From NCBI GenBank assembly GCA_963721365.1, contig CAVRJE010000020.1, positions 6,173 through 70,172 on the forward strand: a stretch of 64,000 nt of DNA, read 5' to 3'. The notes beneath the pieces are model-generated. The model made no database searches. It had not been told where the DNA came from and saw only the letters and a program-made list of their open reading frames with translations. Shown one piece after another: positions 32,964-49,497 of this stretch; within the stretch, counting starts at the first letter, position 1, and every line of letters starts with the position of its first letter. This DNA comes from an uncultured Actinomycetota bacterium. Its GTDB lineage: Bacteria > Actinomycetota > Thermoleophilia > RBG-16-64-13. The position numbers were made by a program, and so were the translations under genes.

Positions 32964-33028
32964 CGCTCCTCCTTGCCTTCGCACCCGTGTACTGGAGCCG
33001 ATGCTAGGAGAAAGGAGCGGCTGGGTGA

Positions 33029-33703
33029 CTACACCAGAGGCTGGAACTTGGCGAGCCACTCCCGCGCCACGGCGGCGCGGTCGCTCAGGTCGAGCTCGCG
33101 CAGGCTCTTGTCGGGCATCAGCTCGACGATGCGGTCGGCCAACTGCAGCGCTTCGGTCAGATCGTGGGTGACGTAGACCACTGTGGTCGTCCGCTCTTTG
33201 AGGATCTGCTGCAGCGTGACCATCAAGGACGACTTGAGGGTGGCGTCCATGTTGCTGAAGGGCTCGTCCATGAGCAGGATGGCCGGCTCCACCGACAGGG
33301 CGCGCGCTACCGAGACGCGCTGGGCCATCCCGCCGCTCAGCTCGGCCGGATGGTAGTGCTCGAACCCGGCCAAGTCGACCCTGGCGAGCCAGCGCGCGGC
33401 CTTCTCCCGCGCCTCGGCCTTGGCGAGCCCCTGGGCGCGGAGCGGAGCGGCCACGTTATCGAGGGCGGTGCGCCAGGGCAGCAGCCTCGGCTCCTGGAAC
33501 ACGTACCCCATCACGCCGTCGGCGACCTGCACCACTCCCGCGTCCGGGCTCAGGATGCCGGTGATGAGCTTGAGGATGGTGGTCTTCCCCACTCCCGACG
33601 GTCCCACTACTCCCAGGATCTGTCCCGACGAGACATGGAACGAGAGATCGTTCAAGACTTCGAGCGAATCGAACGACTTGCTCACGTGCTCGAAGGCGAT
33701 CAT
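33029..33703 (-). CDS. NitT/TauT-family ABC transporter ATP-binding protein
   Basis: GPSGVGKT, 'FQEPRLLPW', LSGGM, 'LLMDEPF', 'VTHD'. Confidence 0.93.
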   Translation of the reverse strand: MIAFEHVSKSFDSLEVLNDLSFHVSSGQILGVVGPSGVGKTTILKLITGILSPDAGVVQVADGVMGYVFQEPRLLPWRTALDNVAAPLRAQGLAKAEAREKAARWLARVDLAGFEHYHPAELSGGMAQRVSVARALSVEPAILLMDEPFSNMDATLKSSLMVTLQQILKERTTTVVYVTHDLTEALQLADRIVELMPDKSLRELDLSDRAAVAREWLAKFQPLV

Positions 33704-33746
33704 CGCGCGGGCCTCCGCGCGCCGGCGCCGCTCATCGTGCCGCGGC

Positions 33747-34527
33747 TCACTGCGGGGCCTTCCGCCAGCGCATGGCCCGCCTCTTGACCGGCCGCAGCAC
33801 GCCGAACTCGATCACCGCCATGAGCACGAGCAGCACCAGGACCCAGGCGAAGAGCTGCGGGGTCTCGAGAAAGCTCATGGCCCGGGAGAAAGCATGTCCG
33901 ATCCCGTTCGTGGCTGCGAGGACCTCGGCCAGGACCACGGCCCGGACGGCGATGCCGGTGGCCAGGGTGAGCCCCGCGATCGCCGGAGAGGCGACGCCCG
34001 GCAGGTAGATCTCCCTGAGCAGGAGGCCGCGCGAGAAGCGGTAGACCCGGCCCATCTCCACCAGCCGCCGGTCGATGGCGAGGACTCCCTCGACCGTGTT
34101 CACGTACATGGTCGGGATCACGATGAGCGCGACCACGAACATCACCGTGAAGTCGCCCAGGCCGAACCAGAGCATGGCCAGCACGGCGATGATGACGACG
34201 GGGATGGTCATCCCCACCCAACGGAGCGGCTCGAAGAACGCCCGCAACCGCGGCTCCAGGCCGGCCGCCACACCAAGCACCCAGCCGACCGCGGCGCCCA
34301 CCGCCAGGCCGATGACCAGGCGCTTGAGCGTGATGAGGAGCTGCACCCAGAGGGTGCTGCCCCAGGCCAGATCGGCCAAGGCCCGGATGGTCGCGGCGGG
34401 CGAGGCCATGATGACCGGGTTGACGAACAGCGAGAGCAGCTGCCATCCGATGAGGATGGCAGCTGCTCCCGCGAGCGTGTAGAGCAGACGGGTGCGCTCT
34501 AGGGGGTGTGGTTGAAGTAGAAGCCAT
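33747..34527 (-). CDS. NitT/TauT-family ABC transporter permease (frameshift near the start)
   Basis: EAA-like 'IDRRLVEMGRVY' and 'VVLAEV.A...GIG'; the ATG at 34527 shifts frame at the C5 run near 34503. Confidence 0.88.
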
Positions 34528-35637
34528 CGTCGGGCACCTTGCCGCCGATCACCTCGGGCGAGAGCTCCGACAGGTCCTGATAGAACGCTTCCAGGCTCGC
34601 CCGGGCGTCCACGGCAGTCGTGTACTTCCAGGCGATGCTCTTGAGCGAAGCGGTCATGACGGCGGCTTTCAGACCGAGCTGCGGCAATTGCGTCTCCACC
34701 AGCTTGCCGGCTTCTTCGGGATTGTCCAGCATCCACTGCACCGCTGCCTTGTACTCGCGCTCGAAGGCCGCGATGACCTCGGGCTTGTCGAGCACGGACG
34801 CAGTGGCGACCGTGCCTGCAATGGGGCTGTCGGTGCCTCCTGACGCCTCGGCCCAGGCCTGGTCGAAGGCGAGAGCCCGGTGCAGCGGCTTGGCGGCCGT
34901 CGCGGTCTGCAGGATGACGGCGGTGGCGAGCGCCTCGCTGAGCACCGCGTTCGACCTGGCCCGACAGCAGCAGCTGCGCGGCCTGCGTGGGGTCGGCGGC
35001 GTAGCGAAGCTTGAAGTCCTTCTGCGGATCGAGCCCTTCGCGACTTGGCGATGTACTGGAACATCAGGTCGGGCACGCTGCCCTCGAACGGCACCACCAG
35101 CGACTGCCCCTTGATGTCGGCGAAGCTCCTGGCTGTGGCGTCGCCAGTGATGAGGTAGGTGATGTTCCACACGGAGATGTCGAGCAGTTGGAGCTTGAGG
35201 CCCTTGTTGTAGAAGATGGCCGAGCTGTTGGACGGCATGGTGACGAAGTCGCCCTGTTTGCCGGCCACGTAGGCCTTGAGCTGGTCGGCGTTCTCCCAGA
35301 TGACCACTTCGGTCTTGTCGGCCACATCGGCGAGCTTGTTGTTGACCGCCATGTACGCCAGCGGGATGGCCATGGGGCCGGGCGGCGCCACCAGGGTGAG
35401 CTTGTCCAGCTTGGCGGCCGGGGCCGATGTGGTCGTGGCGGCCTTCGGAGGCGCTGGTGAGGCGCGGTCGTGCGTGGTCGGGGCCGGTCGTGGGCACCTC
35501 GGTAGCTGCCGGCGACGACGTGTGGTGTCGGAGCCCGACGAGCCGCAGCCGGCCAGACCGACGGCAAGCGCCAGCACTGCGACCAGTGCAAGCGCCAGGA
35601 TAAGGCCGGCGACGAGATTCTTCCTGGAGAGCATCAT
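34499..35637 (-). CDS. ABC transporter substrate-binding lipoprotein (several frameshifts)
   Basis: Lipobox 'LAGC', 'APPGP', 'PSN..AIFYNKG', C-terminal 'IGGKVPDDGFYF'. Confidence 0.8.
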
Positions 35638-35884
35638 TCGTCGAAGTCCATCCTCTGCAGCTCCGACGCCTTTCAGTTCTCCAAGATCCTTGTAGAACGT
35701 CTCTGCCTCGGCACCGAACACGTCGACCAGCACCAGACCGCTCGGGGAGCAGCTGGTCATGTCGGCGTCGTGGATGCCCAAGCCGCGTGCGGATGCTGCA
35801 CCCGTACTTGGTCAGGACCGCCTGGACCGCCGGCACGTTCTCGGTGCGGTGCGAGATGTGGATGCCGAAGATCGTGTGCTTCAT
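35634..35884 (-). CDS. TM1266-like 'iron-only hydrogenase system regulator' (ACT-like), frameshifted
   Basis: Reconstructed MKHTIFGIHISHRTENVPAVQAVLTKYGCSIRTRLGIHDADMTSCSPSGLVLVDV...QRMDFDE; 'VQxxLTxYGCxIxTRLG' signature. Confidence 0.75.
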
Positions 35885-35984
35885 GAGGAATCCCCTTTCT
35901 CGTTGGGGCTGCGCTGCGACCCTCTTGCTGTAGTGCGACAGCGAGTCTCCGGTCGAAGCCGATCTGTGAACCCGCCTCCGACTG

Positions 35985-36029
35985 TTGACTTGCATGGCCT
36001 ATGGTAGTAGATTGTGAAACGTATAACAA
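35985..36029 (+). promoter_or_regulatory. Sigma70-type promoter overlapped by a Rex operator
   Basis: TTGACT(35985)-N17-TAGATT(36008). TTGTGAA-acgt-ATAACAA (36012-36029) matches the Rex consensus TTGTGAA-N4-TTCACAA and lies directly upstream of rex. Confidence 0.8.
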
Positions 36030-36059
36030 CGTTGTTACTGACGTAACGTTGGGGAAAAC

Positions 36060-37172
36060 GTGGCAACGTCCGGAAAACCCGTGGTCTCGCGAAAGACGGT
36101 GCAGCGGCTCAGCCGGTATCGCCGTTTGCTCACCGATCTCCAAGAGACCGGCACCACCAGCATCTACTCTCACCAACTCGCCCACCTCGCCGGCGTCAGC
36201 GCCGCGCAGGTGCGCAGAGACTTCATGGTGATCGGCTACTCGGGAAGCCCCAACCGCGGCTATCAGCTCGACACTTGCCTGGCCAGCATCGAGAACCTGC
36301 TCGACGGCACCACCCGCCAGGACGTAGCTCTGGTCGGACTCGGCCGGCTGGGGCATTCGGTGTTGGCGCACTTCGCCGGCCGGCGCCCGCTGCTGCGCAT
36401 CGCCGCCGGCTTCGACACCGATCCCGACGCTCATCGGCACCTCGGTGGAGGGTTGCCCGGTGCACGCCATGGCCGACCTCGAGCAGGTGGTCAAGCAGAA
36501 GGGCATCCGGGTGGCCATCCTCGCGGTGCCGCCGGAGACCGCCCAAGCGGTCGCCGAGTCGCTGGTGCGGGCCGGCGTGCGGAGCATCGTCGACTTCACC
36601 GCCGTGCCCTCTGCGCCTGCCCGAGAACGTCTTCGTGCGGCACATGGACATCACCTCGGCTCTGGAGACCGCGGCCTTCTTCGCCCGCCAGGACGGAGAT
36701 CCCGAGCCGGATGGCGACGCAGACATCTCCGGAGGCCGAGAACGGCGGCGAGAACGGCGCCGAGGCCGAGATGCGAGCCGATCATCCACACCATCGATTC
36801 GCTCTTGGCGGGGGCCGACATGAAGCTGGACGAACTCGCCCGCCGGATCGGCGCGAAGGTGCTGACGCCGGGTCCCGCGGACGCCAAGATAACCAGGATC
36901 TACGCCGGCGACCGGGTCAGCGACCTGCTGAACGAGGCCTCGAGCAAGACCCTGCTCGTGACCAACCTGGCCAACCTGCAGATGCTCCGGGTAGCCGAAC
37001 TCATGGAAGTGCCGGGCGTCTGCTTCGTCGACGGAGTGGAACCCGACCAGGAGGTGGTCGAGCTCGCCTCCCGAACCACACCATGCTGATGGTCTCCCCC
37101 GTCGGGGTGTTCGAGACCTGCGGCCTCATCTACCAACTGCTGGCCGGCATGCAGAACGGGACCGGCACGTGA
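36060..37172 (+). CDS. rex: Redox-sensing repressor Rex, probably fused via an acidic linker to a DRTGG domain (multiple frameshifts)
   Basis: 'RLSRYRRLL', 'AAQVRRDF', 'RGY', 'VGLGRLG', 'AILAVP', then 'YAGDRVSDLL...LLVTNLAN.Q..RVAEL'. Alternative reading: two genes joined by ATGA at 36820-36823. Confidence 0.85.
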   Translation: MATSGKPVVSRKTVQRLSRYRRLLTDLQETGTTSIYSHQLAHLAGVSAAQVRRDFMVIGYSGSPNRGYQLDTCLASIENLLDGTTRQDVALVGLGRLGHSVLAHFAGRRPLLRIAAGFDTDPDAHRHLGGGLPGARHGRPRAGGQAEGHPGGHPRGAAGDRPSGRRVAGAGRRAEHRRLHRRALCACPRTSSCGTWTSPRLWRPRPSSPARTEIPSRMATQTSPEAENGGENGAEAEMRADHPHHRFALGGGRHEAGRTRPPDRREGADAGSRGRQDNQDLRRRPGQRPAERGLEQDPARDQPGQPADAPGSRTHGSAGRLLRRRSGTRPGGGRARLPNHTMLMVSPVGVFETCGLIYQLLAGMQNGTGT

Positions 37173-37188
37173 GCACGCGAGGCCGCTG

Positions 37189-38860
37189 ATGGAGTTCGTC
37201 TCCTTCGACATCGAGAGCAACGACTTCCGCCGGGCGGGGGCCGCTTCGCGCGCCATCAAGGAGCACCTCAAGCGCATCGGAGCCGATGCGGAGGCCATCC
37301 GGCGCACCATGATCGCCGCGTATGAGGCGGAGATGAACGTGGTGATCCACTCGGTCGGAGGGCAGGCTGGAGGCCTCGCTCTCCGATTCGCGCATCGACG
37401 TCAACGTCGTCGACGAGGGCCCGGGCATACCGGATATCGACCTCGCCATGAACGAGGGCTACTCCACTGCCAGCGCCGCGGCCCGGGCGCTGGGCTTCGG
37501 GGCCGGGATGGGCCTGCCGAACATCAAGCGCAGCAGCGACCGCCTGCGGGTCACCTCGCGGGTCGGCGAAGGCACCCGGGTGAGCTTCACCGTCTACCTC
37601 AGCCCGGAGGTCACGGGTGCGGCCCCGAGCATCTCCCTCTACGCTTCCGCGGACCGCTGCCGCGATTGCCGGGCCTGCCTCACGGCTTGTCCGACTCAGG
37701 CGCTCCGGGTACGGGATGGCAGACCGAGCGTGCTCGAGCATCTCTGCATCGACTGCAACCAGTGCATCGCGGCCTGCAGCACGGGCGCGTTGACCGTACG
37801 GGACGTCCTTCCGTCGGTCGACGACGTGGTCGTCCGGGAGGATGCGGCGTTGGTGGTGCCGCCGGCGCTGCTGGCCGGATGTGGAGCGGACTACCCGCCC
37901 GACCGCGTGCTCGCCGCTCTTGGCCGGCTGGGCTTCGCCGAAGTGAACACGGCGACCCCGTTCGAGGAAGCCCTGCGGGAGGCCGCGCTCGAGACCGCCG
38001 AGGGCGAGGGGCCCCGGACCGGTGATCGTGCCGGCGTGCCCGGCAGTCGTGAACCTCATCGAGCTCCGGTTCCCGTCGCTCGTGGGCCTGCTCGCGCCTT
38101 TCGATTCTCCCTGGGAGGCGGTCGTGGCATCGGGCGGCGGGCGGCCTCTCGCCTGCGTGGTCTCCTGCCCCAGCCAGCGCTCGGTCCTCGCCCAGGAGCA
38201 GACGCCGGCAGCGGGAGGCGACGCGGCACCGTCGTCGAATGCCTTTTGCCCGACGCCGTCCGTCAGCCGCTCATGCGGGAGCTGACCGGGCACGCGCCCC
38301 TCGACGCGGCTGTGGCCGCAGAGGACGGCCGGCAGACAGCCGGCGGAACGCGGGAGGCCGGCGGACCGAGCACACGGACCCGAATGACGACGGGCTGCTG
38401 GTGGTCAGCGGCATCCGCCACGTCATGGCGGTGCTGGAGGAGATCGAGAACGGCCTGCTCGAAGACGTGACGGCGCTGGAGGCCTACGCGTGCGAGGGCG
38501 GCTGCTTCGGCTCTCCGCTGCTCTTCGAGGACCATCACGTCGCCCGCCGCCGGTGGAGCCGCGGGAGAGCCGCCGTCGAGGGCGTGGAAGCCGCGGGACC
38601 CGCGGCGAAGGCACGTCACGGCGGTGCCCCGGCGCCGGCCCTACGCGGCCCGTCCGGGGATCCGCCTCGACTCCGACATGGGGCGCGCCATCCAGAAGCT
38701 CGGCCGCCTCCAGGCCATCACCCATTCGCTGCCGGGACGCGACTGCGGCGCCTGTGGCGCCCCCACCTGTGCCGCTTTGGCGGAAGACGTCGTCATGGAG
38801 CGGGCCGGCGTCGAGCTGTGCCCGTATATCGCCGGCGAAAAGGAGGATACGGACTCATGA
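37189..38860 (+). CDS. RsbT/RsbW-like Ser/Thr kinase fused to 2x[4Fe-4S] + degenerate [FeFe] H-domain + FeS domain (frameshifts)
   Basis: 'IAAYEAEMNVVIH', 'DEGPGI', 'GFGAGMGLPNIKR' run in frame into CRDCRACLTACP and CIDCNQCIAACS. Later segments: 'PACPAVV', 'SCPSQ', 'ACEGGCFG', 'LPGRDCGACGAPTC...C'. Confidence 0.8.
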
Positions 38861-39306
38861 GACTGCACGAACTGGCCCAGGCTCTGGATCTCCGCGAGTT
38901 CACTCCTTCTGTGGACGACGACGCGGAGATCACGCACGGCTACGTGTCGGATCTGCTGAGCGACGTCCTGGCGCATGCTCCTGCCGGCGGCGTCCTGGTG
39001 ACCCTCCAGGTGAACCCGGCCGTCCTCGCGGTCGCGGGCCTTGCGGGCCTGCGTGCGGTCATCTTCTCGTCCGGCCGAAAGCCCCACGATGACATCGTCG
39101 AAAGGTTCACGGCGGATGGGATATCCCTGTTCGGATCGCAGGCGGACAGCTTCGAGGTAGTAGGGCGGCTGTACGATTTGGGACTCCAGGGCAGGCAAGG
39201 ACCGCAGAGCGGGCGTGCCCCCTCCCTGCGCGGTCGTGGGCGAAGACATCCTGCCGAAGCAGACTGGCCCGGCGCTCTGCCTCTGACCCTTCAGACTGGA
39301 GGATAG
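38857..39306 (+). CDS. DRTGG domain protein (copy 1)
   Basis: 'GYVSDLLSDVLAHA...VLVTLQ'. Confidence 0.8.
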   Translation: MRLHELAQALDLREFTPSVDDDAEITHGYVSDLLSDVLAHAPAGGVLVTLQVNPAVLAVAGLAGLRAVIFSSGRKPHDDIVERFTADGISLFGSQADSFEVVGRLYDLGLQGRQGPQSGRAPSLRGRGRRHPAEADWPGALPLTLQTGG

Positions 39307-39309
39307 AAA

Positions 39310-39660
39310 GTGATGACTCTCAAGGATCTTGCCGAAGTCCTGGATCTCCGTCCCCTTACGGCCCAGGTCGAAGACGATGCCGAGATCACGCACGGCTATG
39401 CCTCTGATCTGTTGAGCGACGTCCTGGCGCACGCGCCGGCGGGCGGGGTGCTGATAACCCTCCAGGTGCACTTGAATGTCATCGCGGTGGCGAGCCACGC
39501 CGGCTTGCGCGCGGTCATCTTCTCCTGCGGCCGCGTTCCCGATGACGAGATCCTCGAGAGAGCGGCCGGCGAGGGGCTGTCCCTGTTCGGGAGCAAGGCC
39601 GACACGTTCGAGATCGTCGGGCGCCTCTACGAGTTGGGACTCCGCGGGAGCCCGGCGTGA
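39310..39660 (+). CDS. DRTGG domain protein (copy 2)
   Basis: 'GYASDLLSDVLAHA...ITLQVHLNVIAVA'. Confidence 0.85.
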   Translation: MMTLKDLAEVLDLRPLTAQVEDDAEITHGYASDLLSDVLAHAPAGGVLITLQVHLNVIAVASHAGLRAVIFSCGRVPDDEILERAAGEGLSLFGSKADTFEIVGRLYELGLRGSPA

Positions 39661-39680
39661 AGGCCTGACGGAAGGAAACC

Positions 39681-40542
39681 ATGCTTGAACGACGAGAGCA
39701 CATCGATGTCCGGCGGCCACCCAGCGAGCGACCCCCCCGCGGGCGGCGCCCCCACGGGGCGCCTCACTCCGGGGCTCAAACGGTTCCGTGCGGATCTGCA
39801 TATCCACACGGCGCTGTCGCCCTGCGGCTCGGACGAGATGACTCCCGCCGCCATCGTCGCGGCCGCCTCGGCGAGGGGGCTTGACATGATCGCCGTCTGC
39901 GACCACAACACCGCGGGCAACGTGTTGGCCGTGCAGCAGGCGGGCGAGGCAGCCGGAGGCGGCCTCGCCGTCATCGCCGGCATGGAGTTGACGAGCGCCG
40001 AGGAGGTGCACGTGGTGGGTCTCTTCCCCGACGCCGCCGCGGCCGAGCGCGCGGCCGCTCGGGTGCGCTCCCTCCTCCCCCAGGCCGATCCCGACTACTA
40101 CTCGTTCTTCGGCGAGCAGCCGCTGCTTGGCGGCGGACGGGCGCGAGGTGGGGTCGGAGACCGCCGCCCTGGCGCTGGCCACTCCTCTGGATCTGACGGA
40201 GGCGGTAGCGCTCATCCACAGCGAAGGCGGGCTGGCCGTGGCGGCGCACGTGGACCGGAAATCGTTCGGCGTCTTCTCGCAGCTGGGTTTCTTCCCCGAC
40301 GACGCCGGCTTCGACGGGCTCGAGGTGTCCAGGTGGCTGCCCGCGGATTCGCCGCGGCTCGCCGAGCTTCGCGGCTCCCGGCCTTCCCCTTGTGAGCTCC
40401 TCCGACAGCCATTACCTGGAGGAGATCGGGACGGGCTGCACCGTGCTGTATCTCGCGGAGCCGACTTTCGCCGAACTGGCTCTCGCCCTGGCGAGGGACC
40501 GGAGGCCGGAGTGTGGCCCGGGAGGGCGTGGGCCATGCATGA
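39681..40542 (+). CDS. PHP-family phosphoesterase (frameshifts; end approximate)
   Basis: 'DLHIHT.LSPC', 'CDHN', 'GMEL..AEEVH', 'AHVDR', 'SSDSH'. Confidence 0.85.
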
Positions 40543-41032
40543 CCTCTCCCTGTATCTGCTCGAAGTGCTCGAGAACTCGACGCGCGCCGGAGCGACCCGG
40601 GTGGACGTAGAACTGTACGTCGACCATGCGGCCGACGAGTTGCGCCTGGCCGTCGACGACGACGGCCACGGCCTGACGGCCACGCCCGAGCAGACGCTCG
40701 ACCCCTTCTACACGACTAAGCCAGGCAAAAAGACCGGCCTGGGTCTGAGCCTGCTCAGGGCCGACGCGCAGGCAGCCGGTGGCGACCTGCGGATCGGGCC
40801 CTCGCCCAGCCTGGGTGGGGTCAGAGTGGAGGCGTTCATGCAGCTCGGCCACGTGGACCGGCCTCCGCTCGGGGATGTGGCCACCAGCATCATCGTGACG
40901 GCGGCCACCAACCCGGCGGTCACCTTTACCGTCAGTCTCGCGGGCGACGAGTTCGATCCTCCTCTCGTCCACGCTCCTCCCCTGGAGGCCGCGACGCGGC
41001 TCCAACGACTCACGGAGGAGCTCGTGACTTGA
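40535..41032 (+). CDS. Stand-alone HATPase_c (kinase-like ATPase) typical of hnd clusters
   Basis: 'DLSLYLLEVLENS.RAGA', 'DDDGHG', 'DPFYTTK', 'GLGL', 'HVDRPPLGD'. Confidence 0.88.
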   Translation: MHDLSLYLLEVLENSTRAGATRVDVELYVDHAADELRLAVDDDGHGLTATPEQTLDPFYTTKPGKKTGLGLSLLRADAQAAGGDLRIGPSPSLGGVRVEAFMQLGHVDRPPLGDVATSIIVTAATNPAVTFTVSLAGDEFDPPLVHAPPLEAATRLQRLTEELVT

Positions 41033-41120
41033 CTGGAGAAACAGCCCGGGTGCAGCCCAAAGCGCCCGGCAAGGCGAACAGAGACGGCGATCAGCGACTG
41101 GAAGAAAGGAAGTTGTGGGC

Positions 41121-41669
41121 ATGACCGATGACGTGGGGAAAGCGGGCTGCGCGGGCTGTGAGGAAGCCTCCGAAGAGGAGCTTCTCGCCCGCCTGGACGA
41201 AGTGATCGAGATGTACAAGGACAAGCCGGGGGCCCTCATCCCGGTGTTGCAGTTGGCCCAGGGCATCTTCGGCTATCTGCCCGAGGTGGCGCTCAAACGT
41301 ATCGCCAGAGGCATGCACAAGCCCTACAGCGAGGTAGCCGGCGTGGTGGGCTTCTACTCGTTCTTCTCGACGGTCCCGCGGGGGCGCAATCTCGTCCGCG
41401 TGTGCCTGGGGACAGCCTGCTACGTGCGCGGCGGGATGGCGGTACTCGAGTCCCTCAAGAAGGAGCTGGGCATCGACGTCGGCGAGACGACCGAGGACCG
41501 CGAGTTCTCCCTCGAAGTGGCGCGGTGCTTCGGGGCCTGCGGCCTGGCCCCGGTGATAACCATCAACGACGTGGTGCATCACCGGGTGAAGCCTGCCCGG
41601 ATTCGCGAGGTGCTGGCTCAATACGCGCCGGAGGCGGTAGCCGCCGGGGCTGGGGAAAGGAACGCCTGA
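41121..41669 (+). CDS. hydC: [FeFe] hydrogenase subunit HydC/HndA (NuoE-like [2Fe-2S])
   Basis: 'LIPVLQ..Q..FGYLP', 'CLGTAC', 'CFGACGLAP'. Confidence 0.92.
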   Translation: MTDDVGKAGCAGCEEASEEELLARLDEVIEMYKDKPGALIPVLQLAQGIFGYLPEVALKRIARGMHKPYSEVAGVVGFYSFFSTVPRGRNLVRVCLGTACYVRGGMAVLESLKKELGIDVGETTEDREFSLEVARCFGACGLAPVITINDVVHHRVKPARIREVLAQYAPEAVAAGAGERNA

Positions 41670-42046
41670 TGGCTGACAAGATCAACAGCCCGGCCGACCT
41701 GCTGGCGATGGCCGGCAAGGCCAAGGAGGACATCGACCTTCGCTCGGGCGCCAAAGAGATCAAGGTCACTGTCCACATGGGCACCTGCGGCATCGCCGCC
41801 GGGGCCCGGGACGTGGTGGTCTCCTTCCTCACCGAGATCGGCGACGCGAAGCTCGACAACGTGACCATCCACCAGTCCGGCTGCGCCGGCCTCTGCGAGA
41901 TGGAGCCCATGGCGACCGTGCAGTTCGCGGACGGGTCCGTGTACCACTACGGGCATCTGGAGAGCCGCGAGAAGGTGCACCAGATCGTCCAGTCCCACCT
42001 GGTCGAGGGCAAACCGGTCACCGAGTACCTTGTCAAGTCGGCGTAG
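41669..42046 (+). CDS. Thioredoxin-like [2Fe-2S] subunit HndB/HydD
   Basis: 'VHMGTCGIAAGAR' and 'GCAGLCEMEP'. Confidence 0.9.
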   Translation: MADKINSPADLLAMAGKAKEDIDLRSGAKEIKVTVHMGTCGIAAGARDVVVSFLTEIGDAKLDNVTIHQSGCAGLCEMEPMATVQFADGSVYHYGHLESREKVHQIVQSHLVEGKPVTEYLVKSA

Positions 42047-42062
42047 GAGAGTGACTGAGGAT

Positions 42063-45000
42063 ATGGATCAGATAAGCAATCACGTGCTCGTGTGCACCGG
42101 GGGCGGCTGCATCGCCTCGGGAGCGCTCGAGGTAAGCGCCGCATTCACCAAGGAACTGGAGGACATGGGCATCGCCCCGCAGACGCGGGTCATCGAGACC
42201 GGCTGCCTGGGGCCCTGCGCGGTCGGCCCGGTCGTCCTGGTCTACCCCGACGGCGTCTTCTACCAGAACGTCCAGATCGACGACGTCCACGAGATCGTGG
42301 AGGAACACCTGCTCAAGGGCCGGATAGTCGACACGGCTGGTGAGCCACGCCCCCGGCACCGACCGCTCCGTCGCCGAGATGGAGGACGTCGAGTTCTTCA
42401 ACCGGCAGGTCAAGATAGTCCTCCGCAACTCGGGGATCATCGACCCGCTGAAGATCGAGGAGTACATCGCCCGCGAGGGCTATCAGGCCCTGGCCAAGGT
42501 CCTGACCGAGATGACGCCCGACCAGGTGGTGAGCGAAGTGCTGCGCAGCGGTCTCCGCGGCCGCGGCGGCGCCGGCTTCCCCACCGGGCTCAAGTGGAAG
42601 TTCGCCCGGCAGACCGAGTCGGACGTCAAGTACATCCTCTGCAACGCCGACGAGGGCGACCCCGGAGCCTTCATGGACCGGTCGGTGCTGGAAGGCGACC
42701 CGCACAGCCTCATCGAAGGCATGGCCGTCGGCGCCTACGCCATCGGCGCCAAGGAAGGCTTCGTCTACCTGCGGGCCGAATACCCGCTGGCGGTCGAGCG
42801 ACTCCAGTACGCCATCGACCAGGCCAGGGAGATGGGCCTGCTGGGCAAGGACATCATGGGCACCGGGTTCGAGTTCGACCTCGAGATCCGGATGGGCTCC
42901 GGCGCCTTCGTCTGCGGCGAGGAGACCGCCCTCATGCGCTCCATCGAGGGCGGCCGCGGCGAGCCTCGGCCCCGTCCTCCGTTCCCGGCCGTCAAGGGCC
43001 TGTGGGACAAGCCGAGCGTGCTCAACAACGTGGAGACGTTCGCCAACATCGCCCCCATCATCCTCAAGGGCGCCGAGTGGTACGCGAGCACCGGCACCGA
43101 GAAGAGCAAGGGCACCAAGGTCTTCGCTCTCGGCGGGGCCATCCAGCACGCCGGCCTGGTGGAAGTGCCCATCGGCGTCCAGCTGGGTGAGATCGTCTAC
43201 GAGATCGGCGGGGGCATCCCCGGGGGCAAGGAACTCAAGGCCGTGCAGCTCGGCGGACCGTCCGGCGGCTGTATCCCCAAAGGCAACCTGAACGTCCCGG
43301 TGGACTACGAGACCCTGCAGGAACTGGGCGCCATCATGGGCTCCGGGGGCTGCATCGTCATGGACGACGACAGCTGCATGGTCGACGTGGCCCGCTTCTT
43401 CCTCGACTTCATCCAGGACGAGAGCTGCGGCAAGTGCCCGCCCTGCCGGGTAGGCACCAAGCGCATGCTCGAGATGGTCACCCGCATCTGCAACGGTGAG
43501 GGCAAGGAAGGCGATATCGAAGCCCTCGAGGATCTGGGCAACATCATCAAGGACACGGCGCTGTGCGGCCTCGGCCAGACGGCCGCCAACCCGGTGCTCT
43601 CCACCATCCGCCACTTCCGCCACGAGTACGAGGCCCACATCAAGGATCACTACTGCGAAGCCGGCGTCTGCTCGACGATGTTCACCGCCCGTTGCACCAA
43701 CGCCTGCCCGGCCAGCGTCAACGTGCCCGGGTTCGTCAGCCTCATCGGCGAGAAGCGCTTCGACGAGGCCCTCGTACTCCACCGGGAACGCAACCCGCTC
43801 GCCAGCATCTGCGGCCGGGTCTGCTTCCATCCCTGCGAGAGCAAGTGCCAGCGCGGCTGCCTGGACGAGGCGGTGGCCATCCGCAGCCTCAAGCGGTTCA
43901 TGACCGAGCAGGAGACCGAGGCGCAGCTGCCCGAGGTCCACGAGAACGCCGAGAACGCGGCGCGCAAGATCGCGGTAGTCGGCAGCGGTCCGGCCGGCCT
44001 TTCCTGCGCGTACTTCCTCGCCCGTCTGGGCTACAAGCCCACCGTCTTCGAGAAGGAACCGAGCCCCGGCGGCATGCTGGTACAGGCCATCCCGGCCTAC
44101 CGGCTGCCACGCGAGGAGCTGGGCCGCGAGATCAGCATGATCGAGGCCATGGGCGTCACCATCAAGACGGACGTGGCTCTGGGCAAGGACTTCACCCTGG
44201 CCGGGCTCAAGGACGAGGGCTACGACGCCGTCTTCCTCGGCGTGGGCGCACCTGCCGGCGTCGGCCTTGGGGATCCCCGGCGAACGCGGGACGGGCGTGA
44301 CCGAGGGCTTGACCTTCCTGCGCGAGTACAACGTGCACGGGACGGCCGAGGTCGGCAAGGAGGTGGCGATCATCGGCGGCGGCAACTCGGCCATCGATGC
44401 TGCACGCACCGCTCTCCGCCTCGGCGCCGAGCACGTGAACATCCTCTATCGCCGCCAGCGCGAACAGATGCCGGCGTGGGCGGAAGAGATCCTTGCCGCC
44501 GACGAGGAGGGCATCACGGTGCTGCCTCTGACCGCGCCCAAGCAGATCCTCCGCAACGCTGCCGGACAGGTGGTCGGCGTGCTGTGCCAGAAGATGGCCC
44601 TCGGTGACTACGACAAGAGCGGCCGGCGCAGCCCGGTGGCCGGACGCAACCCCGACTTCACGGTGGAGTGCGACCAGGTGATCGCGGCCGTCGGGCAGTC
44701 GCTCGACGCGAAAGCACTCGTCGGCGACCTGCCGGTGGAACTGAACCGGGGCTGGCTCAAGACCGACCGCAACACCGGCGCGACCAGCGTCGACTGGCTC
44801 TTTGCGGGCGGCGACGCCGTCACCGGCCCCGCATCGGTGGTCGAAGCGGTGGGCGCGGGCGAGCGGGCAGCGGTGGCGATCGACCAGCACTTGACCGGCG
44901 CCAACCACGCCTTCTGGCGCAGGGACATCGCCGTCGACGTGTTCTTCGATCCCGATGCCGATCCCGTCACGACCCCGCGGGCCGCCGTGGTCTGCCTGGA

Positions 45001-45146
45001 TCCGGAGGCGCGCTCCTGCACCTTCGACGAGGTCGAGCTGTCCTGGAACCTCGACACGGCCTGCGCCGAAGCCAGAGCGCTGCCTGCGCTGCGACTACGG
45101 CAAGATCCCGGTGGCGGCCGCTGCTATCCAAGAAGAGGTGAAGTAA
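42063..45146 (+). CDS. hydB: HydB/HndC (NuoF-like, bifurcating-type motifs) fused to a GltD-like FAD/NAD(P)H domain (frameshifts near 42335, 44270 and 45072)
   Basis: N-terminal [2Fe-2S] domain, GRGGAGFP, ADEGDPGAFMD, GAFVCGEE, GGPSGG and CGKCPPC, then in frame CTNACP, CGRVC, GSGPAG, and later GGGNSA and 'RCLRC'. Confidence 0.88.
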
Positions 45147-46918
45147 TGCCAGTCCTGACCGTTGACGACATCAAGGTCGAGGTACCCGAAGGCACCTCCC
45201 TGCTTGACGCCTGCCGGCAGGCCGGCGCCAACATCCCCACCCTCTGCTACCTGGAGGGCGTCCAGGCCATCGGCGCCTGCCGGCTCTGCCTGGTAGAAGT
45301 CGAGGGCGCGAAGACCCTCATCGCTTCCTGCGTGCAGCCCGCCACCGACGGCATGGTCGTCATGACGGGCTCCCACCGCGCCCGGCGCGGGCGCCGGGCC
45401 GTCCTCGAGTTGCTCCTCTCCGAGCACGCGGGCGACTGCCAGACCTGCCTGCGGAGCGCCGACTGCGAGCTCCAGGCCCTGGCCGAGCAGCTCAACGTAG
45501 ACAAGATCACGTACGAGGGCGAGAAGACGCGCAGGATCATCGACGACTCCACCTTCGCGCTGGTGAGAGACACCGGCAAGTGCGTGTCGTGCCGGCGTTG
45601 CGTGACCGTGTGCAACCAGACCCAGGGAGTGGGCGCTCTGTTCCCGCAAGGCCGCGGTTTCGAGACCGTGATCGGGCCGGCCTTCGCCATGAACCTCGCC
45701 GACGTGGTCTGCGTGCAGTGCGGCCAGTGCGCCGCCGTCTGTCCGGTGGGCGCCATCACCGAGAACACCGTGGTCGAGCAGGTCTGGGCCGCGCTCGACG
45801 ATCCCAAGAAGCACGTGATCGTCGAGACCGCGCCCGCCATCCGCGCCGCCTTGGGAGAGGAGTTCGGCTACGAGCCGGGGACGCTGGTCACCGGCAAGAT
45901 GGTCGCAGCCCTTCGCCGCCTCGGCTTCAACGCGGTGTTCGACACCAACTTCACCGCCGACCTGACCATCATCGAAGAGGGCACCGAGCTGCTCACCCGG
46001 CTCAAGAAGGCCCTGGTGGAAGGCGAGGACGTGGCGCTACCCATGTTCACCAGTTGCTCGCCGGGCTGGATCAACTACATGGAGCACTACAACCCCGATA
46101 TGCTCGCCAACCTGTCCACCTGCAAGTCGCCGCAGCAGATGTTCGGCGCTCTGGCCAAGACCTACTATCCGAAGAAGCTGGGGATCGATCCCAAGAACGT
46201 CGTGGTGGTCTCGGTCATGCCCTGCACCGCGAAGAAGTTCGAATGCGCCCGTCCGGAGATGGGACGCGATGGCCTGCAGGACGTGGACATGGTGCTGACC
46301 ACCCGCGAGCTGGCCAGGATGATCAAGCAGGCCGGCATAGACTTCCGCAGCCTCCCCGAGCAGAAGATGGACAGGCCCCTGGGCATCTCCACCGGTGCGG
46401 CCGACATCTTCGCCGCCACCGGCGGCGTGATGGAGGCGGCTCTCCGGACGGCCTACGAGATCGTGACCGGCACGTCCTTCCCCTTCGCCAACCTGCACGT
46501 CACGCCCATCGCGGGCCTGGAAGGCATCAAGGAAGCAGCGGTGACCATCGAGGAGACCGTGCCCGAGTGGTCCTTCCTCAAGGGGGCGACGCTCAAGGTC
46601 GCGGTCGCTCACGGTCTGGCCAACGCTCAGAAGGTGGTCGACCGCATCCGCAGCGGCGAGGCTTCCTACCACTTCGTGGAAGTGATGACCTGCCCGGGAG
46701 GCTGCATCGGTGGCGGCGGGCAGCCCCGGCTGACCTCCGACGCCGTGCGGCAGGCCCGCATCCGCGCCATCTACGCCGAGGACGAAGGCCGCGAATTGCG
46801 CAAATCGCACGAGAATCCCGAGATCCTGGCCCTCTACGACGAGTACCTGGGCGAGCCGCTGGGACATCTGTCCCACGAGTTGCTGCACACCAGGTACACC
46901 GAGAAGGACAGGGTATAG
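45146..46918 (+). CDS. hydA: Group A [FeFe] hydrogenase catalytic subunit 1
   Basis: [2Fe-2S], HxxxCxxC and 2x[4Fe-4S] motifs; H-cluster motifs FTSCSPGW, MPCTAKKFE, EVMTCPGGCIGGGGQP. Confidence 0.95.
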   Translation: MPVLTVDDIKVEVPEGTSLLDACRQAGANIPTLCYLEGVQAIGACRLCLVEVEGAKTLIASCVQPATDGMVVMTGSHRARRGRRAVLELLLSEHAGDCQTCLRSADCELQALAEQLNVDKITYEGEKTRRIIDDSTFALVRDTGKCVSCRRCVTVCNQTQGVGALFPQGRGFETVIGPAFAMNLADVVCVQCGQCAAVCPVGAITENTVVEQVWAALDDPKKHVIVETAPAIRAALGEEFGYEPGTLVTGKMVAALRRLGFNAVFDTNFTADLTIIEEGTELLTRLKKALVEGEDVALPMFTSCSPGWINYMEHYNPDMLANLSTCKSPQQMFGALAKTYYPKKLGIDPKNVVVVSVMPCTAKKFECARPEMGRDGLQDVDMVLTTRELARMIKQAGIDFRSLPEQKMDRPLGISTGAADIFAATGGVMEAALRTAYEIVTGTSFPFANLHVTPIAGLEGIKEAAVTIEETVPEWSFLKGATLKVAVAHGLANAQKVVDRIRSGEASYHFVEVMTCPGGCIGGGGQPRLTSDAVRQARIRAIYAEDEGRELRKSHENPEILALYDEYLGEPLGHLSHELLHTRYTEKDRV

Positions 46919-46960
46919 TTGAGAAACTGTAGTCAGGGACTGTGACTTGGTGAAGGAGCC

Positions 46961-47440
46961 GTGACCACGGGCGAACAGCCACTCATACTGATCGTCGACG
47001 ACGATTACGACTTCCTCGAGATCAATCGCATGATCCTCGAGCGGGCGGGCTACCGCGTGGTCACTGCTGCCGAGCCGCAGCAGGCCCTGACCAAGATGGC
47101 GAAGGAGAAGCCGGACCTGGTCATCAGCGACCTGATGATGACGTCCCTGGACTCCGGCTTCTCCTTCGCACGCGCCATCAAAGAAGATCCGCGGTACGCG
47201 GACGTCCCCGTGATCCTCTCCACCTCGGTCTCGAGCGCCATGGGCCTCGACTTCCGCCCGCGATCGGCCGAGGAGACCGCACAGATGAACGTGGACGCGT
47301 ATTTCGACAAGCCGCTCGTGCCGGCCAAGCTGCTCGCCAAGATCGAGGAGCTGCTGGCGGCCCGGGGCGGCCGGGCGCCGGCGGGCGGCGCGCAGACCGA
47401 TACGGGCGCCGCCCCTGCGGGCGGCGCGGAGACCGGCTGA
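46961..47440 (+). CDS. Single-domain response regulator (receiver)
   Basis: 'ILIVDDD', 'VISDLMM', 'KP'. Confidence 0.9.
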   Translation: MTTGEQPLILIVDDDYDFLEINRMILERAGYRVVTAAEPQQALTKMAKEKPDLVISDLMMTSLDSGFSFARAIKEDPRYADVPVILSTSVSSAMGLDFRPRSAEETAQMNVDAYFDKPLVPAKLLAKIEELLAARGGRAPAGGAQTDTGAAPAGGAETG

Positions 47441-49497
47441 TGCCTACCTGGGACAACCCCCTCATCACCATCATCGGCGAGAAGTGCCGCATGTGCTACG
47501 CCTGCGTGCGGGAGTGCCCGGCCAAGGCCATCCAGGTGGTCGATGGGCAGGCGAGAGTCATCCAGCCGCGCTGCATCGGCTGCGGCAACTGCCTGCGGGT
47601 CTGCAGCCAGAACGCAAAACAGGTCCGGGACGATACGGCGCGTGCCTTTGGTCTGCTGGAGTCGGGGGAAAGGGTGGTCGCGACGGTCGCGCCGAGCTTC
47701 CCCGCCGAATTCACCGACATCCCCACCGGGACCCTCGTGGCGATGATCAGAGCGCTCGGCTTCGACTCGGTCCACGAGATCTCGGTCGGCGCCGATCTGG
47801 TCGCCCACGCGTATCGCAGACTCCTGGAGGACAACCCGGAGGCGCGGTATATCACCACTCCGTGCCCGGCGTCCGTTTCGTATGTGCGCAAGTACCACCC
47901 ACGACTCATGCCCTATCTCGCCCCCATCGTGTCGCCCATGGTGGCCATGGCTCGGGTGCTCCGCCGTGATCTGGGCCCCAACATCAAAGTGGTCTTCATG
48001 GGCCCCTGCATCGCCAAGAAGCGGGCGTCGATCGATACCACCCATGGCGAGGTGGACGCCGTCCTCACCTTCGCCGAACTGAGGGACATGTTCAGCAGGC
48101 GGGGCGTCAGACCCCAAGACTTCGACGGAAACGACCGCTTCGATCCCCCGTATGGCGGACTCGGAGCAGTGTTCCCCATCTCGGGCGGCCTCTTGCAGAC
48201 GGCAGGGCTCACCGAAGACCTGCTGACCGGAGAACTGGTCGTCGCCGAGGGGCGGGGCGAGTTCACCGATGCTATCAACGAGTTCGACCTCGCCCGTGCC
48301 GACACCCGGCTTCTCGACGTCCTCTCGTGCGTGGGGTGCTTCGCCGGCCCGGGAATGACCAGCGACGAGACGATGCTCCAGCGGCGCAGCCGCGTCAGCA
48401 CCTACGCCCGCAACCGGCTGGCCGGCCTCACCGCCGAGGAGGAGGCCGACGTGGCGAGCGCGGCCGAACGGTATGCCGACCTCGATCTCACGCGCGAATA
48501 CCTGGCCGACGCTCAGACGCTGGGCGACAACGCCACGCCGGAAGAGCTGGACGAGATCCTGCACCGGATGGGCAAGTTCCGGGCCGAGGACCTGCTCAAC
48601 TGCGGCGCCTGCGGCTACGACACCTGCATCGACCACGCCCACGCCGTGTACGCCGGGCTGGCCGACTCCGACATGTGCCTCCCCCACACCATCGAACAAT
48701 TGCAGTCTGCCTACCAGGAGCTGGAGGTATCCCACAAGTCGCTCGAGGAGACGAAAGAGGCCCTGGAGCGCTCGGGCAAGCTCGCGAGCATGGGCCAGCT
48801 GGCCGCCGGCATCGCCCACGAGGTGAATAACCCCCTGGGCACGCTGCTCCTGCACGCCAATCTGCTGCTCGAGGAGTGCGAGGGCGATTCCGAGATCAAG
48901 ACCGACCTGGAGACCATCGTCGACCAAGCCAACCGCTGCAAGCGCATCATCTCGGGGTTGCTCAACTTCGCTCGGCAGAGCCGGGTGGTGCGGCAACCCA
49001 CCAACGTCTCGGAGGTCGTCGACAAGGTCATCCGCACGGCCCCTACCGCCGACAACGTCACGGTGACCGTGCAGGACCGTCTCTCCGACCCGGTCGCGGA
49101 GATCGACGGCGATCAGATCGTACAGGTGCTCACTAATCTGTTCACCAACGCGCAGCAGGCCATGCCCAACGGAGGCACTATGACGATCGGGCTCAGCGAC
49201 GATCCCGACACGGTGACCATCCGCGTTTCGGACACGGGCACGGGGATCCCCAAGGAACACATGACCCGCCTGTTCGACCCCTTTTTCACCACGAAGCAGG
49301 TGGGCATGGGCACCGGCCTCGGGCTGGCCGTCACCCACGGCATCGTCAAGATGCACCGGGGCCAGATCAACGTGGAGTCCAACATCGACCCGGCAGCCGG
49401 CCCGACCGGGACGACCTTCACCATCGAACTGCCCCGGCGCGAAATGGGCACGCCGATCATGCCGGCGGTCGCCGGCATGATCGGCGCTTCCGCGTGA
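47440..49497 (+). CDS. Group C (HydS-like) sensory [FeFe] domain fused to a histidine kinase
   Basis: 2x[4Fe-4S], 'TTPCPA', 'GPCIAKK', 'LSCVGCFAGP', 'NCGACGYDTC', then H-box 'AHEVNNPL', N-box, 'DTGTG', 'FFTTK', 'GTGLGL'. Confidence 0.92.
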   Translation: MPTWDNPLITIIGEKCRMCYACVRECPAKAIQVVDGQARVIQPRCIGCGNCLRVCSQNAKQVRDDTARAFGLLESGERVVATVAPSFPAEFTDIPTGTLVAMIRALGFDSVHEISVGADLVAHAYRRLLEDNPEARYITTPCPASVSYVRKYHPRLMPYLAPIVSPMVAMARVLRRDLGPNIKVVFMGPCIAKKRASIDTTHGEVDAVLTFAELRDMFSRRGVRPQDFDGNDRFDPPYGGLGAVFPISGGLLQTAGLTEDLLTGELVVAEGRGEFTDAINEFDLARADTRLLDVLSCVGCFAGPGMTSDETMLQRRSRVSTYARNRLAGLTAEEEADVASAAERYADLDLTREYLADAQTLGDNATPEELDEILHRMGKFRAEDLLNCGACGYDTCIDHAHAVYAGLADSDMCLPHTIEQLQSAYQELEVSHKSLEETKEALERSGKLASMGQLAAGIAHEVNNPLGTLLLHANLLLEECEGDSEIKTDLETIVDQANRCKRIISGLLNFARQSRVVRQPTNVSEVVDKVIRTAPTADNVTVTVQDRLSDPVAEIDGDQIVQVLTNLFTNAQQAMPNGGTMTIGLSDDPDTVTIRVSDTGTGIPKEHMTRLFDPFFTTKQVGMGTGLGLAVTHGIVKMHRGQINVESNIDPAAGPTGTTFTIELPRREMGTPIMPAVAGMIGASA

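Follow-up and report, generated by a model that had tools for sequence, protein, structure and literature searches.

A putative sensory hydrogenase cassette with two domain fusions, tentatively linked to Rex, at the head of an Hnd-type [FeFe] hydrogenase operon in Thermoleophilia

Introduction

In anoxic soils and sediments, in guts and in fermenters, the H2 economy is set by electron-bifurcating hydrogenases, and the way in which [FeFe]-type sensors let a cell sense H2 is still open. The M2e proteins contain two [4Fe-4S] motifs at the N-terminus, an H-domain and, at the C-terminus, a Cx2Cx4Cx16C motif, and have no PAS domain, their C299 is not conserved, and their gene is often located within a group A hydrogenase operon (Land et al., 2020; PMC8163306). 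The gene of TamHydS, from Thermoanaerobacter mathranii, lies next to a histidine kinase-like ATPase (PMC8163306), and in 2026 its interaction partners were described as still to be identified (PMC13104023). This bears out a first-pass annotation of the locus studied here, made by a model from the letters alone, which had called the wiring of such parts unresolved and had proposed for them an H2- or redox-sensing Ser/Thr phospho-switch acting on the repressor Rex. In this paper we look at that locus, in a stretch of 64,000 nucleotides (the window; assembly GCA_963721365.1, contig CAVRJE010000020.1) from an uncultured actinobacterium of the class Thermoleophilia, in which a Rex protein fused to a DRTGG domain and a kinase-like domain fused to a protein resembling a sensory hydrogenase (HydS-like) precede the genes of a multimeric [FeFe] hydrogenase.

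Control of hydrogenases by HydS, kinases, phosphatases and Rex is a proposal reportedly due to Zheng et al. (2014). It was put forward for fermentative hydrogenases, with HydS-type sensors, kinases or phosphatases and Rex as the controlling parts (PMC5707799, PMC10084766). Deletion of hfsA has the same phenotype, a regulatory one, as deletion of hfsB, and HfsA is described as a partial match to [FeFe] large subunits (PMC5707799, PMC11837493). The control idea, the M2e class and the flanking ATPase of TamHydS are thus already in print. In the accessible parts of the literature, to which all statements taken from papers cited by PMC number refer, we found no paper that treats the DRTGG, GHKL and PHP genes together as a system, and neither the kinase-HydS fusion nor the Rex-DRTGG fusion.

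The locus and its closest described relatives

The source genome comprises 2.86 Mb in 29 contigs, is 86.5% complete and has ~66% G+C. Between 36060 and 41032 all the open reading frames (ORFs) of interest are on the + strand, chopped over three frames, and Pfam matches on the pieces include the Rex N-terminus, CoA_binding, HATPase_c_2, Fer4, Fe_hyd_lg_C, DRTGG, PHP and HATPase_c. The features, up to the end of the hydrogenase genes, are as follows; U-type and D-type denote upstream-type and downstream-type DRTGG domains.

35985..36013, + strand: promoter-like site, -35 TTGACT, 17-nucleotide spacer, -10 TAGATT
36012..36029: Rex-box-like operator TTGTGAAACGTATAACAA, abutting the -10 hexamer
36060..37172, + strand: Rex paralogue with a C-terminal U-type DRTGG domain (DRTGG part from ~36775); indels at ~36426, 36606, 36714, 36774 and 37071
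36901-36930, + strand: motif YAGDRVSDLL of the Rex-DRTGG protein
37189..38860, + strand: SpoIIAB-like GHKL domain (about the first 145 codons) joined to a HydS-like protein with two Fer4 clusters, an H-domain-like part and a C-terminal Cx2Cx4Cx16C cluster; indels at ~37360, 38001-38012, 38222, 38377 and 38606
38857..39306, + strand: D-type DRTGG protein A, motif GYVSDLLSDVL at 38938
39310..39660, + strand: D-type DRTGG protein B, 116 amino acids, GTG start, motif GYASDLLSDVL at 39394
39685..40540 (end approximate), + strand: PHP+PHP_C phosphoesterase; indels at ~40129, 40366 and 40494
40535..41032, + strand: small HATPase_c protein, a histidine-kinase-like catalytic ATP-binding domain without HisKA
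41115-41669, + strand: hndA
41669-42046, + strand: hndB
from 42063, + strand: hndC, long form, frameshifted
45146-46918, + strand: hndD

All the parts named by the first-pass annotation are therefore present on the + strand directly before the hydrogenase genes, and its three Ser motifs could be located. The ATG of DRTGG gene A overlaps the TGA of the kinase gene (ATGA), the cassette genes are tightly packed, and no convincing + strand terminator was found before hndD in the window region 35700-47600. Judged from its sequence, the region is most likely the regulatory head of one operon, reaching from the promoter at 35985 to the end of hndD at 46918, for an Hnd-type multimeric [FeFe] hydrogenase. 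The predicted enzyme is of the HndABCD type, with NuoE-like, small ferredoxin-like, NuoF-like and H-cluster subunits. HndA matches 2Fe-2S_thioredx with an E value of 2e-47, and HndD has the motifs MPCTAKKFE and E[IV]MTCPGGCIGGGGQ, while its L1 motif reads TSCSPGW.

The head itself can be read as the partner-gene cassette (DRTGG, GHKL ATPase, HydS-like protein, DRTGG, PHP and HATPase) of a group D (M2e)-type putative sensory [FeFe] hydrogenase, in which two pairs of neighbours are fused. With TamHydS the predicted protein shares the two [4Fe-4S] motifs, the four-Cys H-domain, the Cx2Cx4Cx16C motif, the absence of PAS and a hydrophobic residue at the C299 position, as well as a place upstream of a multimeric bifurcating-type hydrogenase and beside a histidine kinase-like ATPase. 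It differs in that the GHKL ATPase is fused to its N-terminus, in having Gln at the place we take to be that of Lys358 and Tyr at that of M497, in a non-conserved E252 position, and in its neighbouring regulator, which is Rex-DRTGG here and AraC-type there; the likeness is one of domain layout. The clusters of Ruminococcus albus HydS and of T. saccharolyticum hfsABCD have in common with this locus a hydrogenase-like sensor, kinase- or phosphatase-type genes and a proposed role of Rex. In contrast, their HydS is of group C with a PAS domain and their phosphatase of PP2C type, and in the accessible parts of their descriptions no DRTGG, PHP or Rex fusion is mentioned.

Continuity of the two fusions

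Since the window copy is broken by frameshifts, we compared it with a genome of the same genus (G001), which matches the whole 5.1 kb with 82% nucleotide identity over the aligned region. There the ORFs are uninterrupted: Rex+DRTGG of 364 amino acids, HATPase_c_2 with two Fer4, Fe_hyd_lg_C and FeS (PF04060) of 563, then DRTGG of 148, DRTGG of 115, PHP+PHP_C of 295 and HATPase_c of 178, followed by HndA, HndB and HndC. The nucleotide alignment places indels of 1-2 nucleotides in the window at ~36426, 36606, 36774, 37071, 37360, 38225, 38606, 40129, 40366 and 40494, besides a few longer ones. As an independent check, contigs of four other public runs were aligned to the stretch. All the covering contigs lack the extra bases of the window at 36427, 36606, 37363, 38222 (2 nucleotides) and 40125-40129, and they carry one extra base at 37072; some of them differ from the window by only 1-4 letters per 150-380. 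The frame breaks in the cassette are assembly errors, as had been suspected, because independent contigs lack them at the same places. Reading them as marks of pseudogenes was rejected on the same ground and because other genes of the window are split likewise, namely an ABC transporter at 33000-35800, hndC and hndD. Gene calls on this assembly are unreliable before polishing.

The linker region of Rex-DRTGG (36684-36854) is barely covered by the independent contigs and has two frame changes at ~36714-36774. Continuity of Rex and DRTGG in the source strain is therefore best argued from the relatives and from the conserved pre-domain segment EPIIHTIDSLLAG, which is in frame with the DRTGG part in the window.

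The Rex-DRTGG protein

The Rex part passes the NCBIfam model NF003995 with 190.9 bits (cut-off 126), and Put_DNA-bind_N and CoA_binding were matched in the G001 protein. In 51 sequences G93 and G98 are invariant and F118 and D119 nearly so. The AlphaFold2 model (predicted local distance difference test, pLDDT, 84.3) has a disordered linker at residues 214-229. In Foldseek the Rex part of the model matches 2vt3, 3ikt, 1xcb and other Rex structures (E ~1e-16), and the tail matches the DRTGG domain of the Clostridium perfringens CBS-pyrophosphatase (3l2b_A, E 7.7e-6). The protein thus has the predicted architecture of a Rex redox-sensing repressor, a winged-helix N-terminus followed by a Rossmann domain with GxGxxG. 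Like the Rex proteins of Thermus aquaticus, Bacillus subtilis and Thermotoga maritima with known structures, it also has the C-terminal swap helix and a Rex-type operator at its own promoter; unlike them it carries a disordered linker of ~20 amino acids and a DRTGG domain of ~125, and it is a second paralogue dedicated to the cluster. The last point follows from an additional plain Rex (36-39% identity) that nearly every genome carries elsewhere, e.g., G000:C14:56466-57095 and G001:C15.

The fusion claimed at first pass was confirmed by the intact ORF in G001 and holds across the lineage. Among 8000 candidates scored, 537 database proteins matched at E <= 1e-5; most of the best 120 have 340-410 amino acids and more than 93% query coverage, and a few of 305-331 cover 83-87%. 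Named records among these 120 are labelled simply "Rex". A profile of the U-type DRTGG domain found 1531 cluster representatives at E <= 0.001, and of the best 150 most are free-standing proteins of 105-150 amino acids and a handful are fused to Rex, so the fusion is the exception. Other candidate fusions of the domain were set aside: a DRTGG+EAL protein (P0385) is a single record with an incomplete DRTGG, two joins of DRTGG to the kinase (P0367, P0368) look like read-through into the kinase gene, and P0478 looks chimeric.

The kinase-HydS protein

A search with the kinase-HydS protein gave 724 matches, and nearly all of the best 120 combine PF13581, Fer4, PF02906 and PF04060. The AlphaFold2 model is confident (pLDDT 89.1, predicted TM score 0.78). 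Its residues 1 to ~140 match SpoIIAB (1til_E; TM score 0.85, root-mean-square deviation 2.0 Å, 20% identity), and the remainder matches [FeFe] hydrogenases, 8zqd_A first (E 1.6e-11), then 9gnk, 1hfe_L, CpI and HydABC. PF13581 scores 39 bits on the G001 kinase domain (cut-off 27.4). In an alignment of 68 sequences the GHKL residues E46, E48, N50, D75-x-G-x-G (D75, G77, G79) and the GFGAG box (G102-G106) are invariant or nearly so, and the catalytic Glu (E46) precedes the N-box Asn (N50) by four residues, as in SpoIIAB/RsbW-type GHKL kinases. The domain is hence predicted to be a GHKL fold of the SpoIIAB/RsbW type with its catalytic residues kept. It is not an anti-sigma F orthologue, since its score with TIGR01925, 48.5 bits, is far under the cut-off of 135.

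The same alignment shows all 16 cysteines of the clusters to be invariant or almost so: the eight ferredoxin Cys, C292, C335, C442, C446, C526, C529, C534 and C551. The spacing C526x2C529x4C534x16C551 is an exact fit to the Cx2Cx4Cx16C of group D. An alignment by hhalign to the HndD of the window (probability 97.5%) places C292 at the second Cys of L1 and a Val at the first. With the four H-cluster Cys kept and a hydrophobic residue at the position of the proton-relay Cys299, the Fe-S part appears to be a [FeFe]-hydrogenase-like sensor protein of the group D (M2e) domain layout, without PAS. The fusion and its domains stand as first described, as an RsbT-like kinase joined to a ferredoxin and a [FeFe]-like domain; that description missed the group D (M2e) putative sensory type. 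The alternative proton path of group D comprises E252 and E289 of TamHydS, and proteins of this group have Ser or Thr at the M353 position. No conserved Glu was seen at the E252-like place in the 68 sequences; Ser334, which adjoins C335, may be the counterpart of that Ser or Thr. E438-x-Y440-x-C442 parallels E289-G-L291-A-C293 of TamHydS as this can be read from primers (PMC10407848).

As unaligned leads, the ESM Atlas holds kinase-less HydS-like clusters of 394-459 amino acids in Bacillota, Bacteroidota, Spirochaetota and Thermodesulfobacteriota.

DRTGG domains and their Ser motif

We aligned 74 U-type domains, those borne by Rex included, and 79 D-type domains. Both types share the motif Y-A-[G/S]-D-x-x-S-D-x-L, and its Ser is present in 73 of the U-type and 77 of the D-type domains, the remainder being gaps; the conserved Ser that the first reading had picked out is thus invariant in both paralogues apart from gaps. 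The U-type has in addition two invariant Cys (GICF, ETCG) and the D-type invariant His residues (QVHLNV, SHA). In a divergent paralogue set encoded by split genes the Ser is retained (YISDMVSDI, VASDGMSEIL), while the stretch of Escherichia coli Pta aligned to the motif, in a weak alignment of 5% probability, reads ARSIPHML; hence the Ser motif looks specific to the subfamily. In that weak alignment the eponymous DR of Pta falls on VH here. PF07085 scores in G001 are 25.8, 20.2 and 17.3 bits, straddling the cut-off of 25.2, and the fold matches the DRTGG domain of 3l2b, so that the cassette domains are best taken as a divergent subfamily of DRTGG. A search of solved structures with the D-type sequence and profile gave chance-level matches only.

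In the Rex-DRTGG model Ser281 is located at the N-terminus of the helix 280-286, behind the strand 273-276, a modelled position that would fit a phospho-acceptor and an anion-binding site equally well. For a complex predicted from the U-type DRTGG, the D-type DRTGG, the kinase domain and ATP, the score lay within 0.20 of that of a control in which chain 1 had been exchanged, and the prediction is counted neither for nor against a complex.

Among the same-genus relatives compared, only G000 and G001 have two D-type genes in tandem; the other genomes of the genus in this comparison are without query positions 3192-3383. Unaligned ESM Atlas leads for the D-type domain are clusters named "Serine kinase family protein".

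Promoter and operator

TTGACT-17-TAGATT is the only + strand promoter-like match in 35700-47600, where shuffles gave a mean of 0.5. The operator of Rex we take to be of the type TTGTGAA-N4-TTCACAA, and the box at 36012-36029 has 2 mismatches to it. This single box is weak when taken alone, because 9 of 100 shuffles reached two matches at up to 3 mismatches. In 38 of 51 actinobacterial loci a box with up to 3 mismatches precedes the Rex-DRTGG ORF by 0-90 nucleotides, compared with a background of 19 in 1340 random 380-nucleotide windows of the same loci and 3 of 16 loci before the free DRTGG gene of other phyla. Its conservation in the relatives argues that it is more than chance.

Distribution and co-occurrence

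Species-representative genomes were scanned with motifs of the kinase, which gave 194 relatives; the best 80 loci were kept and surveyed by ORFs and phmmer. By record title, 63 of them are Actinomycetota-type and 17 belong to Planctomycetota, Omnitrophota or Hydrogenedentota. The actinobacterial layout is [Rex+DRTGG][kinase+HydS-like][DRTGG][PHP][HATPase_c][HndA][HndB][HndC, ~1020-1090 amino acids][HndD], and Rex+DRTGG is one ORF in 59 of the 63 loci, short-read assemblies included; of the remaining four, contig ends truncate three, and L025 carries the two parts as adjacent ORFs. In the other phyla the order is [free DRTGG][kinase+HydS-like][DRTGG][PHP][HATPase_c][HndA...] in all 17 loci. PHP is present in 76, HATPase_c in 74 and HndA in 71 of the 80.

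The first-pass annotation had asked whether the two fused architectures co-occur, and they do, side by side. In 201 genomes of the class, which are kin, matches to the cluster-type Rex and to the fused kinase-HydS are found together in 44, the Rex type alone in 4 (G150 and G159, at contig ends; G020; G030), the kinase-HydS alone in 4 (a fragment in G098; the split paralogue only in G173, G187 and G197) and neither in 149. Of the 44 genomes, 43 have the two matches on one strand with less than 130 nucleotides between them, and both fusions are confined to the families f1 and f3. As the genomes are kin, this co-occurrence amounts to at most a few independent events.

Some genomes of family f3 carry a second, divergent copy of the core as split genes (L091, G164:C6; L092, G197:C11), which consists of DRTGG, in part a second DRTGG, a kinase of ~140 and a HydS-like protein of ~437 amino acids. 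It has no PHP, Rex or second HATPase and is located beside a divergently oriented NuoE/NuoF-like pair. DRTGG, the GHKL kinase and the HydS-like protein are the constant core over three arrangements (fused, split and Rex-fused), because the split form exists beside another NuoE/F cluster. Rex is, by the present distribution, a late add-on to an older module, since the cassette of other phyla has no Rex nearby.

The PHP protein and the second HATPase

The PHP protein of G001 matches PF02811 (31 bits) and PF13263 (22.4 bits), both over the cut-offs. Among named proteins it comes closest to RNase AM (7ug9, E 2.9e-7), a PHP phosphoesterase, and the 3',5'-bisphosphate phosphatase 2yb1; the nearest NCBIfam models, RNase RNM and nucleoside bisphosphate phosphatase, are all matched far under their cut-offs. 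CpsB-type PHP proteins are protein phosphatases, and no match to this type was listed for the PHP protein.

The second HATPase_c is always directly before hndA and is read as one ORF with it in 9 of the 80 loci (L012, L013, L014, L016, L017, L032, L059, L063 and L086), by which it seems tied to HndA.

Discussion

How might such a cassette work? Based on these data we suggest that Rex-DRTGG would repress the operon through the box abutting the -10 hexamer and would be released by NADH as other Rex proteins are, since the Rex fold and the NAD-binding motifs are intact and the operator is conserved. The HydS-like part would inform the kinase domain of H2 or of its own clusters' redox state, because the two are fused. 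The kinase domain may then bind, and possibly phosphorylate, the invariant Ser of the DRTGG domains, as neighbourhood, fusion and conservation would have it. By analogy with SpoIIAA and RsbV, the free D-type DRTGG would be a competing partner and the U-type DRTGG borne by Rex the target, so that the module would add an input of H2 or ferredoxin type to the NADH input of Rex. In Thermoleophilia it would reach transcription since a dedicated Rex, the putative repressor of its own hnd operon, bears one of the DRTGG domains. The partner switches of SpoIIAB, RsbW and RsbT have in common with this cassette the GHKL fold (TM score 0.85 to SpoIIAB) with its Glu/Asn spacing, small partner genes translationally coupled to the kinase and, in the candidate partner, a Ser at a helix N-terminus. 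Here, in contrast, the partner would be a protein of DRTGG fold and the target a repressor, and the kinase is fused to an Fe-S sensor. The likeness of DRTGG to SpoIIAA and RsbV is thus one of resemblance and not of membership.

Several points weigh against this explanation. STAS, PP2C and sigma factor genes, the usual company of such switches, were seen neither in the G001 cluster nor among the query-matched ORFs of the 80 loci, the flanks having been surveyed without a dedicated STAS/PP2C family search. The pocket of the putative H-domain departs from that of catalytic enzymes, with Val at C299, the invariant Tyr440 at M497 and an invariant Gln338, which stands at what we take to be the position of Lys358; the binding of H2 by the HydS-like part is made uncertain by these residues. 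H2 does not reduce the C-terminal cluster of TamHydS (PMC13104023). The PHP protein, by its relatives, would belong to a nucleotide- or RNA-type clade rather than to the CpsB-type protein phosphatases, so that its proposed role as eraser of phospho-Ser found no support. Outside the Actinomycetota there is no Rex in the 10-kb flanks of the cassette in 17 of 17 loci, its upstream neighbour varies (HydF in 3 of 10 loci inspected), and the plain Rex present in 4 of 5 of these genomes stands, where inspected, before a second NuoE/NuoF/HydA cluster that has no cassette. Transcriptional output through Rex can hence not have been the ancestral job of the cassette, and the Rex fusion, which two families of one class share, may go back to one evolutionary event. 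Two further genomes are at odds with a kinase-Ser pair. G020 (98% complete, 2 contigs) has Rex-DRTGG with YAGDRVSDLL, a degenerate HATPase_c and Hnd, without kinase-HydS, D-type DRTGG or PHP, and G030 (98% complete, 1 contig) has a plain Rex, a D-type DRTGG, PHP, HATPase_c and Hnd, without kinase-HydS. No orthologue of the kinase was found elsewhere in either, the best matches being generic GHKL proteins of 29-33% identity, so the Ser motif is kept there without its proposed kinase. Since 13 of 21 sampled genomes of their genus have the kinase, these are probably recent losses.

Considering both sides, we give the whole explanation, a sensor cassette wired to Rex, a probability of about 0.4. 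Its parts differ. That the HydS-like/GHKL protein and DRTGG are direct partners is rather probable; that their partnership acts through Rex on transcription in this lineage comes slightly short of an even chance; and phosphorylation of the motif Ser appears unlikely. The phospho-switch of the first reading accordingly keeps its fusions, its kinase fold, its sensor-like Fe-S part, its Ser and its operator, and finds no support for its PHP eraser, with the motif lacking a kinase in the two genomes above. Rex as transcriptional output was strengthened by the conserved candidate operator at the promoter and weakened by the cassettes outside Actinomycetota that have no Rex nearby. The fullest version, in which DRTGG is a STAS-like partner-switch or phospho-acceptor, the fused kinase of the group D sensor alters Rex, the free DRTGG is a decoy and PHP erases phospho-Ser, is doubtful.

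The main rival explanation is that the cassette mainly serves the hydrogenase enzyme, i.e., the activity, assembly or protection of its NuoE/F-type bifurcating core, and not transcription. The GHKL and HATPase proteins would act on Hnd subunits with DRTGG as adaptors, and the Rex fusion of Thermoleophilia would be a secondary tie by which the level or activity of the repressor is coupled to this machinery. The 17 non-actinobacterial loci, where no regulator is near, fit this well, as do the constant place of the second HATPase before hndA and its nine single ORFs with HndA (some of which may be read-through or frameshift artefacts of long-read metagenome-assembled genomes), the split paralogue set that adjoins another NuoE/NuoF pair, and G020, which retains only Rex-DRTGG, HATPase_c and Hnd. 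A SpoIIAB-type fold together with a sensor-type hydrogenase points instead to signalling, the fusion to a DNA-binding repressor is kept across two families, and in T. saccharolyticum deletions of hfsA and hfsB alter adhE transcript levels (PMC5707799); we regard service to the enzyme as unlikely to be the main role, if well worth keeping in mind.

It may also be that DRTGG is a module for a nucleotide-type ligand with D-x-x-S-D as the ligand site, that PHP makes or removes the ligand and that the GHKL proteins respond to ATP, in which case Rex-DRTGG would integrate NADH with a second metabolite and no protein would be phosphorylated. DRTGG-bearing regions of Pta and of CBS-pyrophosphatase are regulatory, in their case allosteric, and a helix N-terminus, where the modelled Ser lies (280-286), is a typical anion-binding position; the relatives of PHP, RNase AM and 3',5'-nucleoside bisphosphate phosphatase, and the persistence of motif-bearing DRTGG domains in genomes without the kinase agree with this too. 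We know of no ligand for any DRTGG domain, all the PHP matches to named families are far under their cut-offs, and the translationally coupled linkage of DRTGG and kinase is better explained by a protein partnership, which makes a ligand module very unlikely. Least credible is that a long-read assembly full of frameshifts has produced both fusions as artefacts and that the genes are separate. The window copy is heavily frameshifted, with a linker barely covered by other contigs, and database joins such as P0367 and P0368 show that read-through may occur; still, the unbroken ORFs of G001 and of 59 among 63 actinobacterial loci, which come from many assemblies, the nearly always full-length best 120 matches for each fusion and the confident single-chain model of kinase-HydS refute it for the lineage. 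The wiring to Rex thus stays the preferred explanation.

Neighbouring observations

The reduced cassettes of G020 and G030 (L089, G020:C1; L090, G030:C1) lie in genomes of 1.7-1.8 Mb and are natural deletion variants; the N-box of the G020 HATPase_c is apparently lost.

Directly after hndD the window has a single-domain receiver (46961-47440), a 685-amino acid protein with Fer4 and a [FeFe]-hydrogenase-like domain followed by HisKA/HATPase (47440-49497; FeFe_hydrog_B1 180 bits, partial; AtoS-like kinase 198 bits) and a hybrid of receiver and histidine kinase (49529-50698). By these domains 46961-50698 is a second, predicted two-component type of hydrogenase-like sensor at the same operon. ORFs of ~650-690 amino acids with FeS and HATPase parts recur in many of the 80 loci and are upstream of the cassette in some Planctomycetota.

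The L1 motif of HndD, at ~45900 in the window, presumably has the consensus TSCCPxW. The TSCSPGW found here is present in 41 HndD ORFs of the 80 loci (L009-L088), so it is not a sequencing error, and the three HndD ORFs checked (L009-L011) have canonical L2 and L3 motifs. The identical variant was noted for confurcating hydrogenases of Melainabacteria (PMC3787301). The long HndC (42063-45145 in the window; ~1020-1090 amino acids in relatives) has in its extra part a dinucleotide-binding GxGxxG stretch, VVGSGPAGLSCAYFL, which by eye looks GltD/NfnB-like.

Conclusions

Natural fusions are among the few clues to direct partnership that sequence can offer. The kinase-HydS fusion nominates a SpoIIAB-like GHKL domain as the immediate partner of the sensor, and the Rex-DRTGG fusion nominates DRTGG as a handle on a transcription factor that is known, as is its operator. 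Through the two fusions the vague label "sensory" becomes a system of four proteins and one operator that can be tested in vitro. If the module works on Rex, it would be to our knowledge the first case of a Rex with a second, protein-borne input; and if DRTGG should prove an analogue of STAS, a single repressor would combine a reading of NADH/NAD+ with one of H2 or of the ferredoxin redox state.

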